A stretch of 64,000 bases of DNA. Source: a virus. Its lineage: Duplodnaviria; Caudoviricetes. The number at the start of each line of letters is the position of its first letter. The stretch's first letter is position 1. The stretch lies in the IMG/VR virus record IMGVR_UViG_3300042483_000388; one strand, written 5' to 3'. The notes under the pieces are model-generated. The model made no database searches, had not been told where the DNA came from, and worked only from the letters and a program-made list of their open reading frames with translations. Made by a program: the position numbers and the translations under genes. Below, in pieces: positions 4,736 to 33,925 of the stretch.

Positions 4736-5152
4736 ATGAAAATCGTTATAACAGAATCTCAGTATAACTTATTGGTTGAATCAAAAAAAGATAAATTTAA
4801 AAAGTTTTTAAAAGACAAATTTGATTTTGAATTGGAAGTTAAACTTATTGAAACGTATGATGATATTCCAACTAATATTCGTGATTTGGTATCCCTTAGG
4901 TGGTTTAAGTCTCAGATAAATGCATTTGGTCCTTTGTATCTTTTTAAATTTAATGATAGAACTTTTTTATTTGTGGATAGCGAACGCAATGGTGGATTTG
5001 CTTTGGAAATAATTTATCATAATTCTTGGGCGAATGGCATGGATAGTAAAATTGGTGGAACTACCTCTTTAACAGGAGATCGTTTAAACAAACTATTTAA
5101 TATTAGTGAAATTGGGTTGGACCCCATTGTTATAATAAAATTGTATTTATAA
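4736..5152 (+). CDS. Leader-family protein (MKIVITESQYNLLVE) with KFLK..FGP.Y domain
   Basis: ORF track; domain shared with the C-terminus of 10589-11413 and with 11410-11853; TATTTAT at 4724. Confidence 0.75.
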   Translation: MKIVITESQYNLLVESKKDKFKKFLKDKFDFELEVKLIETYDDIPTNIRDLVSLRWFKSQINAFGPLYLFKFNDRTFLFVDSERNGGFALEIIYHNSWANGMDSKIGGTTSLTGDRLNKLFNISEIGLDPIVIIKLYL

Positions 5153-5183
5153 ACCCACCTTTTAATTAAGAGTGGGGATTTTT
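5152..5183 (+). terminator. Intrinsic terminator, repeat family A
   Basis: AACCCACCTTTTAATTAAGAGTGGGGATTTTT. Confidence 0.65.
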
Positions 5184-5204
5184 GTTTCTTGTATATTTAT
5201 TAAT

Positions 5205-5594
5205 ATGAAAATTATAAGACTTACTGAATCAGATTTAACTCGTATTGTTAAACGAGTAATTAATGAAGACTTTAAACAAACCTCATGGGAAGATATTTGG
5301 TTTAAGTTAAGAAGATTATCACAAAGTTTTCATTTTCCTGAAGATCCTGAGTATAGTTTTGGTGGACTTAATTTTATGGTTTCGGAAGACGGAGAAAGTT
5401 TGGAACTAATGGACATTTATAAAGATCCTTATATGTGGAGAGATGACTATTATGAAGGTGTTGAGGTTTTAGAAAAGTATTCAAATAAAATTAAAAACTT
5501 TGTTGATGAGTTTAATTTAAAATACGACTATCCATTTACCCTTATGTTTAAAATGGGTCCAAATTATGATATGAAATTTTACACTGAAGATTAA
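5205..5594 (+). CDS. Leader-family protein (MKIIRLTESDLTRIVKRVINE)
   Basis: Probable start ATG 5205 after TATTTAT at 5194-5200. Confidence 0.75.
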   Translation: MKIIRLTESDLTRIVKRVINEDFKQTSWEDIWFKLRRLSQSFHFPEDPEYSFGGLNFMVSEDGESLELMDIYKDPYMWRDDYYEGVEVLEKYSNKIKNFVDEFNLKYDYPFTLMFKMGPNYDMKFYTED

Positions 5595-5758
5595 ATAATG
5601 TGAAATTTATTCTAAACCCCCACCTCATCAGTGGAGGTTTTCTAAAACACGACCCCTCTTTTTTAATAATACCTAATTACTGAAAAAAAAATTTTAGAAA
5701 AATTTAACCAAGTTTTATATGTTGATATTATTAAATAATATTACTAACGTTTAACTAT

Positions 5759-18456: not shown

Positions 18457-18651
18457 ATGACAGATTTTTTAAAACATTTGTATTTGACACTGATGAACAA
18501 ATATGGTTCATTTATGTGGTTTGGTGTTCACATGGGTGTAACTCAAATTAATTGGCATTGGATTTTAGAAACTTTCGCTTGTGTCTTGATAAATTTAATG
18601 GTTTTACATACAATTTATATCGAGTGGAGGGATTCTAAGAATAACAATTAG
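18457..18651 (+). CDS. Small membrane protein
   Basis: Two hydrophobic stretches in 64 aa. Confidence 0.55.
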   Translation: MTDFLKHLYLTLMNKYGSFMWFGVHMGVTQINWHWILETFACVLINLMVLHTIYIEWRDSKNNN

Positions 18652-31319: not shown

Positions 31320-31430
31320 ATGGATGAAATATTAGAATCGATGCATGAAGAGTTTATTAACTCCGAAGAGTATATCGTATTATTACGGAGATTAATAGAC
31401 GAAGAAGAAGAAAGATATTTAACAAAATAA
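31320..31430 (+). CDS. 36-aa acidic peptide
   Basis: Hand translation: MDEILESMHEEFINSEEYIVLLRRLIDEEEERYLTK*. Confidence 0.45.
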   Translation: MDEILESMHEEFINSEEYIVLLRRLIDEEEERYLTK

Positions 31431-31500
31431 GTTGTGTAGCTCAGTTGGTTAGAGCAATCCGATTTCGGATGTGTCGCAGGTTTGAGTCCCGCCACAACTT
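31430..31500 (+). ncRNA. tRNA-like RNA with collapsed (4-nt) anticodon loop
   Basis: Acceptor AGTTGTG/CACAACT; D arm GCTC-AGTTGGTTA-GAGC; ATCCG-ATTT-CGGAT; T arm GCAGG-TTTGAGT-CCCGC. Confidence 0.75.
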
Positions 31501-32618: not shown

Positions 32619-32691
32619 ACGTCTGTAGCTCCAACGGTAGAGCATTGGTTTCCAAAACCAAGTGTTGGTGGTTCGAATCCATCCAGGCGTG
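32619..32691 (+). tRNA. trnW: tRNA-Trp(CCA)
   Basis: Acceptor ACGTCTG/CAGGCGT; TTGGT-TTCCAAA-ACCAA; T loop TTCGAAT. Confidence 0.92.
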
Positions 32692-32766
32692 CTAATAAGG
32701 AAGTATATGAGAGTCCTGAATTGTACACAAAATATCCCTATTGACATCTCGGAAAGACGAGGACAT

Positions 32767-32840
32767 AGTTAATTATCTCAGTTGGTTAGAGCGATTCCCT
32801 GATACGGAATAGGTCATTGGTTCGAGTCCAGTATTAACTA
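32767..32840 (+). tRNA. trnI: tRNA-Ile(GAT)
   Basis: Acceptor AGTTAAT/ATTAACT; ATTCC-CTGATAC-GGAAT; T loop TTCGAGT. Confidence 0.9.
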
Positions 32841-32845
32841 CATAT

Positions 32846-32918
32846 CGCGGGATGTGGAAATTGGTCATCCGCTCGGTCTCATAAGCCGAGATTACAGGTT
32901 CGAGCCCTGTTCCCGCAA
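32846..32918 (+). tRNA. trnfM: Initiator-type tRNA-Met(CAT)
   Basis: C1xA72 mismatch (CGCGGGA/TCCCGCA); TCGGT-CTCATAA-GCCGA; only two of the three initiator G-C pairs in the anticodon stem. Confidence 0.85.
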
Positions 32919-32922
32919 CTAA

Positions 32923-33023
32923 GTGTTGTTCCTGTGAGAAGGGAATGGAATAGTCAGGTGGGTATATAAACTTTACAATGGGTTATATTCACATTTGCAC
33001 AACACAGAGGACTTCTCACCCTC
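32923..33023 (+). ncRNA. Unassigned structured RNA with predicted kissing loop
   Basis: P1 GTGTTGT/ACAACAC; P2 TCCT/GGGA with loop GTGAGAA; P3 GTGGGTATA/TATATTCAC; 3' hairpin GAGG/CCTC with loop ACTTCTCAC complementary to the P2 loop. Confidence 0.6.
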
Positions 33024-33027
33024 AAAT

Positions 33028-33097
33028 AGTCAGGGGGCGTGTAGGAGAACGCAACCGATCATAAGGGAGAGAATAGGTTCGAATCCTGTCCTGACTA
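33028..33097 (+). ncRNA. tRNA-like RNA (AGTCAGG shell) with unpaired anticodon arm containing CAT
   Basis: Acceptor AGTCAGG/CCTGACT; D stem GCGT/ACGC; T arm ATAGG-TTCGAAT-CCTGT; anticodon stem cannot form. Confidence 0.7.
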
Positions 33098-33112
33098 CTA
33101 ACAGAAAAGAAT

Positions 33113-33241
33113 ATGAAAAATAAAAGAATGTTAATTAAAGTGGACCTATTAGGTTGTAAAAACATGAAAGAAGCTTGTAGAGTTGTAGATTATCTCAGAG
33201 ATGGTAAAATTAAATTATCCGTTGAAAAAATAAAGAAATGA
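33113..33241 (+). CDS. 42-aa hypothetical peptide
   Basis: Hand translation: MKNKRMLIKVDLLGCKNMKEACRVVDYLRDGKIKLSVEKIKK*; ATGA overlap with the next gene. Confidence 0.5.
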   Translation: MKNKRMLIKVDLLGCKNMKEACRVVDYLRDGKIKLSVEKIKK

Positions 33242-33441
33242 TAAAGTGTGTTGACAGGGGGATATGGACTTGTATTAGTAATTCAGGTGTGTTAAAAAAA
33301 TCGTATGACAATTCTGATGCCGCAATTAGTGCTGCAAAATTAGTTAATAAATACGACCCAAAAGAAACAACAAAGTTAGTTGCGTACAAATGTACACATT
33401 GTCACAAATATCATTTATTAACGGTTAATAAAAAAAATTAA
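33238..33441 (+). CDS. Small putative zinc-binding protein
   Basis: AYKCTHCHKYHL (CxxC..H) plus an N-terminal Cys. Confidence 0.65.
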   Translation: MIKCVDRGIWTCISNSGVLKKSYDNSDAAISAAKLVNKYDPKETTKLVAYKCTHCHKYHLLTVNKKN

Positions 33442-33448
33442 ATAATAT

Positions 33449-33602
33449 AGTCAGGTGGTGGAATGTTAGACACATAGTGACACGCACGGCAACCTTGAAT
33501 AAGTGCACTTTGAAAAGGCAATGCGAATGATGAAGAACACTACCTCACTGTGCGTAGGTAAAATTCAAAGTGTTCATACAGGTTAGAATCCTGTCCTGAC
33601 TA
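33449..33602 (+). ncRNA. tRNA-shell RNA with ~100-nt structured insert replacing the anticodon arm
   Basis: Acceptor AGTCAGG/CCTGACT-A; D-like arm GTGGAATGTTAGACAC; T arm ACAGG-TTAGAAT-CCTGT; internal pairings listed under findings. Confidence 0.72.
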
Positions 33603-33674
33603 CAAAGGGGTAGAATATTAGTAAGGGCCTTTCCTGAAAGATGGCTAGCTAGGCCCGTGTCTACCCTTATTTTT

Positions 33675-33746
33675 GGTCCCATCGACTATCGGTTAGGTCG
33701 TCAGGTTTTCATCCTGGAAAGTCGGGTTCGATTCCCGGTGGGACTA
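33675..33746 (+). tRNA. trnE: tRNA-Glu(TTC)
   Basis: Acceptor GGTCCCA/TGGGACT; TCAGG-TTTTCAT-CCTGG; T loop TTCGATT. Confidence 0.92.
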
Positions 33747-33826
33747 CTATAGCTAACCAAGCTTTACTACGATACGGGTTCATACCTGTGGGTTAGGGGT
33801 GACGATCAGGAAAGACTGATAAAGTT

Positions 33827-33899
33827 GGTCCCGTGGTTGAATGGTTACAATTCCACCCTGTCACGGTGCGAGATACGGGTTCGAATCCCGTCGGGACCG
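33827..33899 (+). tRNA. trnD: tRNA-Asp(GTC)
   Basis: Acceptor GGTCCCG/CGGGACC; CACC-CTGTCAC-GGTG; T arm ACGGG-TTCGAAT-CCCGT. Confidence 0.92.
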
Positions 33900-33925
33900 C
33901 AAAACATTTTAAAAAAATAACTATT

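Follow-up and report, generated by a model that had tools for sequence, protein, structure and literature searches.

A UGAC/GAAAGA RNA hairpin ahead of tRNAs in a phage array belongs to a pan-phage family and may mark the boundaries of spacer RNAs

Lambda boxB, the RNA element of N-dependent antitermination, consists of a 5-bp variable stem under a purine-rich, GNRA-like loop (GAAAA or GAAGA) that differs even among lambdoid phages. Other repeated hairpins, such as the RNase III sites of T7 and the Cas6-cut repeats of CRISPR arrays, are generally known to punctuate multi-unit transcripts and to stay on the processed end. Within phage tRNA clusters, theta ribozymes adjoin the 3′ ends of tRNAs, mostly in phages of Bacteroidota, and fold as a double pseudoknot whose catalytic cytosine comes first in J4/2, between P4 and the 3′ strand of P2 (Kienbeck et al. 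2024, PMC10879173). Here we describe a 22-nt hairpin with an invariant 5′ UGAC and a GAAAGA hexaloop, two copies of which stand directly ahead of tRNAs in a 64,000-nt stretch of DNA (the window) from a virus of the Caudoviricetes (Duplodnaviria; IMG/VR record IMGVR_UViG_3300042483_000388).

With the boxB of lambda nut this element shares a 5-bp variable stem, a conserved purine-rich loop, sense orientation, few copies and its nature as a cis-acting phage RNA. Unlike boxB, it has a hexaloop, an invariant 5′ UGAC and one sequence across many phyla; it keeps a position 3-8 nt ahead of tRNA 5′ ends, and neither a boxA nor an N-type protein is evident. Like T7 RNase III sites and CRISPR repeats, the hairpin recurs between the units of a longer transcript and would be retained at the processed end, but its stem is too short for RNase III and no nuclease was identified; unlike CRISPR repeats, it comes with neither a spacer array nor a cas gene, and its sequence is common to unrelated phages rather than specific to one system. 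With theta ribozymes it has in common that it is a small RNA element among phage tRNAs, is common in phages of Bacteroidota and may be tied to tRNA maturation, as has been proposed for theta ribozymes. In contrast to them it adjoins the 5′ ends of tRNAs, lacks a pseudoknot or catalytic core and is also found before open reading frames (ORFs).

The initial annotation of the window had read, before tRNA-Ile and tRNA-Asp, a TGAC followed at one or two nucleotides by a stem with a GAAAGA loop. Both strings are present where it placed them, but the spacing is not variable: the two copies follow one register, TGAC-R-5bp-GAAAGA-5bp-A, with a single purine after TGAC and a G-C innermost stem pair. The hairpins and their tails are as follows.

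32742..32763, + strand: hairpin copy 1, UGAC-A-[UCUCG]-GAAAGA-[CGAGG]-A; 34.5 bits; minimum free energy (MFE) -5.5 kcal/mol
32763..32766, + strand: G-free 4-nt tail ACAU, doubling as the 5′ leader of tRNA-Ile
33800..33821, + strand: hairpin copy 2, UGAC-G-[AUCAG]-GAAAGA-[CUGAU]-A; 34.4 bits; MFE -5.4 kcal/mol, z -2.56
33821..33826, + strand: 6-nt tail AAAGUU, doubling as the 5′ leader of tRNA-Asp

Copy 1 is made up of TGAC (32742-45), A (32746), the stem TCTCG/CGAGG (32747-51/32758-62, its outermost pair being U.G), the loop GAAAGA (32752-57) and A (32763); copy 2 of TGAC (33800-03), G (33804), the stem ATCAG/CTGAT (33805-09/33816-20), the loop (33810-15) and A (33821). GAAAGA occurs 64 times on the two strands of the window, and at least four flanking Watson-Crick pairs are found at these two sites only (about 0.25 expected). 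The 22-nt degenerate pattern TGACRNNNNGGAAAGACNNNNA has exactly two sites in the window and none in 100 shuffles, and a covariance model of the family scores both copies at E about 1e-7, with the next match at 9.3 bits, leaving them the only such hairpins in 64 kb. Both show every feature by which the family is recognised (UGAC, a purine, a 5-bp stem closed by G-C, the GAAAGA hexaloop and A), as well as its context: sense orientation, a distance of 4 and 6 nt to the tRNA and a G-poor tail. A chance origin of the pair is ruled out by the flank-pairing counts, the shuffles and the stem pairing seen across IMG/VR.

The family to which both copies belong is pan-phage and consists of small hairpins in sense-strand RNA. 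In IMG/VR, two scans with exact patterns gave at least 261 matches, and the figures that follow refer to the matches listed. All four free stem positions are paired in 196/261 of them (about 2% expected) and three are paired in 31. When 72 distinct copies are aligned, all six standard pair types occur at each of the four free stem positions but one, where five are seen, and sliding the partner strand as a control lowers pairing to 22-37%; the covariation first claimed from two stems is true covariation across the family. Among copies with a single non-Watson-Crick position G.U exceeds A.C (31 vs 7), and every tRNA within 300 nt of a listed copy (101/101; 203 unique copies at 176 unrelated loci) lies on the same strand, so the element is an RNA of the sense strand. 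UGAC and the closing pair with its loop, GGAAAGAC, are constant from AT-rich to GC-rich phages, and the stem sequence is free. The stem is followed by A and then by a tail in which G falls to 4-5% at +2 and +3, against a background of 25%, even when no tRNA follows. Natural variants have UGGC, GGAC or AGAC in place of UGAC, or the loops GAGAGA or GAACAGA.

The position of the hairpin is as constrained as its sequence. A tRNA called by ARAGORN begins 3-8 nt downstream of 35/203 unique listed copies, compared with 0.09 expected, an enrichment of about 390-fold. By a shape test that takes an acceptor stem plus T arm as a tRNA-shaped RNA, such an RNA of 66-229 nt begins 3-7 nt past 53/196 listed copies vs 5/980 control positions. 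The hairpin almost never directly follows a tRNA; where a listed copy does have a tRNA upstream, the two are separated by 25-60 nt of unrelated sequence. The proposal of a recurrent structured RNA tied to tRNA 5′ ends thus holds far beyond this genome: with a covariance model built and phage loci scanned, the motif recurs in relatives and in unrelated phages and is strongly enriched beside tRNAs.

The hosts of carrier phages are Bacteroidota, Vibrio, Erwinia/Salmonella/E. coli and Bacillus, the cultured carriers being about 60 Vibrio phages, SPN3US-like jumbo phages of Erwinia, Salmonella and E. coli, and Bacillus subtilis phages. Genomes hold 0-6 copies, most of them one or two. The hairpin is common in phages and rare in bacterial cells: with one genome per species, 11 of the 120 bacterial pattern matches listed are fully paired (2.4 expected), as against the 196 of 261 viral matches listed. 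A pattern scan of E. coli K-12 and O157 Sakai found no canonical copy, only 23S rRNA and chance matches, and a BLAST search with one stem variant hit 1/5,426 E. coli genomes. Although widespread, the hairpin is absent from the RNA catalogue Rfam 15 and from the literature found. Rfam 15 gave no family for the spacers, whether run over the region at E up to 5 or on each spacer alone at E up to 10, and gave HEARO and tRNA only in 14 other carrier loci at gathering score; our literature search found no description of the hairpin, the theta ribozyme papers being the only related ones. Furthermore, when the ORFs of 240 loci (4,570 of at least 90 aa and 8,187 of 45-89 aa) were clustered all against all, no linked phage protein emerged, although small arginine-rich proteins could escape such a procedure. 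The commonest neighbouring family occurs in 15/240 loci (at least 90 aa) or 10/240 (45-89 aa), and the top families are ordinary phage genes (terminase, helicases, ERF, HNH, repressor). A small CsrA-like or N-like partner was considered and rejected, no family being present in more than 15/240 loci.

In the window the + strand array runs tRNA-His, tRNA-Trp, a first spacer (A), tRNA-Ile and tRNA-Met; downstream of tRNA-Met come odd tRNA-like RNAs and two small ORFs, then tRNA-Glu, a second spacer (B) and tRNA-Asp, with hairpin copy 2 preceding this last tRNA of the array.

32619..32692, + strand: tRNA-Trp (CCA), upstream neighbour of spacer A; ARAGORN; Rfam tRNA 60.5 bits
32693-32766, + strand: spacer A, 74 nt, between tRNA-Trp and tRNA-Ile
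32693..32741, + strand: body of spacer A, lineage-specific, 49 nt, kept in close relatives only; helices weak and without covariation
32767..32841, + strand: tRNA-Ile (GAU), beginning 4 nt past the stem of hairpin copy 1; ARAGORN, Rfam
33675..33747, + strand: tRNA-Glu (UUC), upstream neighbour of spacer B; ARAGORN, Rfam
33748-33826, + strand: spacer B, 79 nt, between tRNA-Glu and tRNA-Asp
33748..33799, + strand: body of spacer B, lineage-specific, with an outer helix and an inner hairpin
33827..33900, + strand: tRNA-Asp (GUC), beginning 6 nt past the stem of hairpin copy 2; ARAGORN, Rfam

An annotated phage collection matched only the tRNAs of this array, best a Flavobacterium phage tRNA-Glu at 96%. 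As relatives we took 80 IMG/VR loci retrieved by similarity (58-74% identity) to the 172-aa protein whose gene lies immediately before the array. These contain 25 copies of the motif by pattern and 29 by covariance model, 29/29 on the + strand, with the stem variants UCUCG/CGAGA, CUUCG/CGAAA, ACUCG/CGGGU, AUCAG/CUGAU and GUCAG/CUGAC. The RNA that follows varies (Ile-GAU, Asp, Met, a second Ile type, an AGTCAGG-type look-alike) and the gap of 4-7 nt is constant. Variants with a GAGAGA loop (L002:9964, L005:11861, L003:10412, L004:5857) stand directly before tRNA-Glu or tRNA-Asp; since such members exist, the third loop base may be A or G.

The relatives also redefine the element. The conserved unit is the 22-nt hairpin, with its short G-poor tail, and not the ~75-nt module of the initial annotation, as the upstream ~50 nt differs between lineages and copies. 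Upstream of UGAC, spacers A and B are unrelated, and further lineages have yet other bodies. The longer helices and the crossing complementarities (GTCC/GGAC; GCTTTA/TAAAGT) do exist in the window sequence as had been described, but the crossing ones are broken in relatives. Spacer A as a whole folds no better than shuffles (z +0.21), and the GGAC partner of its GTCC is replaced by GAAT or AAAT in 4/6 variants. The outer helix of spacer B (33753-58/33791-96) is paired in 85% of the cells compared, with one pair broken in 12/16 sequences; its inner hairpin (33774-79/33784-89) is 96% paired with one compensatory change; and its crossing helix GCTTTA/TAAAGT is 68% paired, with a C-G pair in the window alone (1/16) and 14/16 relatives unpaired there. 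Some relatives keep the 5′ half of spacer B and have, in place of its 3′ half and the hairpin within it, other sequence with a different hairpin. Thus in L010, L017 and L027 the Glu-to-Asp spacer (112 nt) keeps the first ~41 nt of spacer B and has a new 3′ half that ends in a GUGAG...CUCAC hairpin 8 nt before tRNA-Asp, a modular swapping within the spacer. A search of each spacer for a tRNA, as a cloverleaf or as an acceptor stem plus T arm, gave no match. The body of spacer B was also weighed as a degenerate tRNA or tRNA top half and rejected, having an inner loop that varies (UUCAUA, CUCAUA, AUCAUA, UAAUA) and no T loop.

We propose that the element is a boundary, or punctuation, hairpin that is recognised by a conserved and probably host-encoded factor and caps the spacer RNA end left by RNase P, a reading to which we give a probability of roughly 0.4. 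In the transcript of the array the hairpin is the final element of the spacer RNA, 4 or 6 nt ahead of the next tRNA. RNase P cleavage at the 5′ end of that tRNA would then leave an upstream fragment ending in the hairpin and a 3′ tail of 4-6 nt or, for the hairpin in general, 3-7 nt. A highly conserved trans factor, most likely the host's, would recognise the invariant loop and flanks, and the element would fix and protect the RNA end that arises from cutting of the array. The hairpin itself, predicted to be non-catalytic, may also keep the spacer from pairing with the tRNA and in this way insulate the tRNA leader. As no phage protein family travels with the hairpin and the same invariant bases are found in phages of distant phyla, its reader is probably a conserved host component, or else the RNA acts without a partner. 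A hairpin 4-8 nt ahead of the following tRNA likewise closes other spacers of these arrays, which fits a general rule of end hairpins. Of the functions offered initially, a protein-binding site or processing signal is still the leading one, and the option of a ribozyme is not supported.

Several observations weigh against a boundary hairpin. About 70% of the listed copies have no recognisable tRNA shape after them. The hairpin is dispensable, in that relatives can have a different spacer, or no spacer at all, between the same two tRNAs, and one 214-kb relative is without any copy at the low end of the range of 0-6 per genome. Tandem copies right before ribosome-binding sites fit an end cap loosely. 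Conservation of the R after UGAC and of the A after the stem was partly imposed by the search patterns, and we infer the end-capping mechanism from position only. We know of no universal bacterial protein that reads such a loop.

The tandem copies are found in L094, L119 and L261, as sets of two or three consecutive hairpins that are spaced 23-36 nt apart and lead directly into AGGAGG and the start of a 289-324-aa ORF. The proteins of these ORFs have acidic or Gly/Ala-rich N-termini, and a terminator-like hairpin lies upstream in at least two of the loci. The hairpin is also contained in long gene-free RNA arrays.

Phage tRNA clusters are usually taken as bare lists of tRNAs, and here they are mixed arrays of tRNAs, look-alikes and spacer RNAs punctuated by a hairpin, with the same loop and flanks in phages of Bacteroidota, Proteobacteria and Firmicutes. 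A hairpin so conserved, so widespread and uncatalogued implies a contact of phage RNA with conserved cell machinery that has gone unrecognised. It is possible, if rather unlikely, that the hairpin gives phages a universal handle, usable in any host, on a single and highly conserved piece of the bacterial RNA machinery, either as a decoy that displays the 23S rRNA segment 2056-2063 to a factor whose usual target is that site, or as a dedicated end cap that stops exonucleases or is coupled to RNase P. If the end-cap version were true, phages could obtain stable small RNAs from arrays punctuated by tRNAs, with no need of terminators. Once the reader of the hairpin is identified, the way in which phage arrays of non-coding RNA mature or are protected would become clear, and the hairpin might be of use as a portable RNA tag for processing or stability.

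We consider it unlikely that the hairpin is instead a processive antitermination or anti-Rho element of the boxB or put kind, which on the nascent transcript would recruit a conserved factor or affect RNA polymerase and in this way allow transcription through long untranslated arrays and late operons. The 5-bp stem and purine-rich GNRA-like loop do resemble lambda boxB, as generally known, the copy number is low, and copies occur in untranslated RNA arrays or, when in tandem, between terminator-like hairpins and the start of large ORFs. Of the features of lambda nut, the hairpin has the boxB-like shape, and neither a conserved flanking motif, including a boxA-like partner, nor an N-like gene or other shared neighbour protein was found among the carrier loci searched (by a clustering that could miss small arginine-rich proteins). 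Such an element would also leave the fixed distance of 3-8 nt to tRNA 5′ ends unexplained, and copy 2 stands before the last tRNA of the array. A look-alike in the 3′ untranslated region (UTR) of two RNA phages, which never use the host RNA polymerase, speaks in the same direction, although its membership in the family is uncertain. These are two related soil leviviruses, L321 (NC_073863.1 4255-4275) and L445 (NC_073865.1), in which the look-alike lies ~36 nt from the end of the record, with UGAC or AGAC, a GAAAGA or GAUAGA loop and one compensatory pair (C-G to U-A). We rejected these copies as proof that the hairpin acts independently of transcription, because their 6-bp stem with a bulged U takes in the C of UGAC and membership is uncertain.

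Distinctly improbable, in our view, is a trans-acting decoy or sponge, that is, a released hairpin that titrates a conserved host protein, possibly by mimicry of 23S rRNA. A 322-kb phage does have five hairpins in 78-nt units that end in a terminator, as sponge RNAs do, and the motif is phage-enriched without a phage partner, but most genomes have one or two copies and no candidate target is known. The mimicry derives from the 8-mer GGAAAGAC, which is matched in all seven E. coli rrl genes. At E. coli K-12 NC_000913.3 227806-227821, and in the six other rrl genes, the closing pair and loop GGAAAGAC are preceded by AGAC-G, and we take the 8-mer to be positions 2056-2063 of E. coli 23S rRNA (whole match 2048-2063), numbering from the annotated rrlH start and from established knowledge. 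Positions 2056-2063 are universally conserved and belong, with A2058 and A2059, to the peptidyl-transferase region. The segment G2056-C2063 of the central loop of domain V is identical to the closing pair and loop of the hairpin; however, its bases there join helices 73 and 74 and form no hairpin loop, the identity covers 8 nt only and stops short of the stem, and an 8-mer would match somewhere in about 4.6 kb of rRNA by chance with a probability of ~7%. The identity is a lead and not evidence, and could reflect mimicry or chance.

The 322-kb phage just mentioned is L092 (IMGVR_UViG_3300015050_001523, 135407-135790, minus strand). Four of its five tandem hairpins keep a 78-nt period, each unit consists of the hairpin and a second stem-loop, an intrinsic terminator closes the array, and a sixth copy lies 42 kb away.

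To a passive folding insulator, a fast-folding stable hairpin that would block mispairing of spacer and tRNA and that spread with tRNA cassettes without any partner, we assign an equally small chance. Unrelated hairpins at the same place in other spacers of these arrays, and the dispensability of the hairpin, would be expected of such an insulator. The retention of UGAC and GGAAAGAC around a free stem, together with the exclusion of G from the tail, is more constraint than stability needs, however, and the window copies have MFEs of only -5.4 and -5.5 kcal/mol. A mimic of a CCA-end microhelix was rejected separately, ACCA following 2/213 copies only.

A self-cleaving ribozyme, the other function that had been suggested for the ~75-nt unit, is very improbable, whether as a pseudoknotted HDV-like or theta ribozyme trimming the 3′ end of the upstream tRNA or as a new class. 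The spacers do start right after tRNA-Trp and tRNA-Glu, where theta ribozymes sit (PMC10879173), and the order of helices in the window can be drawn as a nested double pseudoknot, in which P2 would pair the 3′ end with a segment between P1 and P3. Against this, the crossing helices that would serve as P2 are not conserved, the hairpin and the putative P2 strand adjoin directly, leaving no nucleotide, and hence no C, at the place required for the catalytic C, and the spacers alone match no Rfam ribozyme at E up to 10. In addition, the upstream 25-50 nt is unrelated between lineages, and the hairpin also stands alone in tandem, with 2-5-nt linkers, before ribosome-binding sites. An HDV-like or theta ribozyme was accordingly rejected on the 68% pairing of the P2-type helix in spacer B, the loss of the GTCC partner in 4/6 variants of spacer A, the missing J4/2 C and the missing Rfam match. 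A hammerhead was rejected as well, because the GA of the CUGANGA box is missing from UGAC-R and the stem is not followed by GAAA; Rfam 15 gave no match in the spacers to hammerhead, twister, twister-sister, pistol or hatchet cores.

Finally, a signal at the level of DNA, either a sigma-70-type promoter or a single-strand DNA hairpin (a phage N4-type promoter, primase or nicking site), is just as implausible, for although spacer A contains TTGACA-17 nt-CATAGT (TATAGT in relatives) and some spacer B tails resemble the Bacteroidota TAnnTTTG box, transcription would start within the tRNA sequence, the region upstream of TGAC yields no consensus and the base adjoining TGAC varies, 0-6 copies per genome make no general promoter, and the stem covariation and the G.U excess of 31 to 7 indicate RNA.

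Further structured RNAs lie in and around these arrays. The 70-nt spacer before tRNA-Glu (window 33605-33674) is a separate, conserved long hairpin with an MFE of -23.6 kcal/mol, which stops 7-8 nt before tRNA-Glu and is outside the UGAC/GAAAGA family. It forms the Met-to-Glu spacer in relatives too, with a compensatory change from GGGCC/GGCCC to GGGCT/AGCCC. The weaker GAAAGA that the initial annotation had pointed to in its 33606-33668 hairpin exists as a hexamer (33636-41), gives no match to the model and so falls outside the family. In two cultured phages, Bacillus phage 022DV001 (L322, MN176222; host B. subtilis) and Vibrio phage 1.285.O (L324, MG592655; host V. lentus), the UGAC/GAAAGA hairpin, near 5148 and near 18550 respectively, lies within an unannotated, gene-free stretch of roughly 0.8-1.3 kb, at about 4870-5700 in the Bacillus phage. 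Each stretch contains numerous stem-loops, a tRNA-like unit and a terminator and is probably a long or modular non-coding RNA locus. Three tRNA-like RNAs of the window were skipped by ARAGORN: 31430-31500 (Rfam tRNA 47.4 bits, with an anticodon loop of one base), 33028-33097 (Rfam tRNA 29.8 bits) and 33449-33604, in which an AGTCAGG/CCTGACT acceptor stem and a T arm enclose an insert of ~100 nt. AGTCAGG-type elements like this last one come after the UGAC/GAAAGA hairpin in several relatives.

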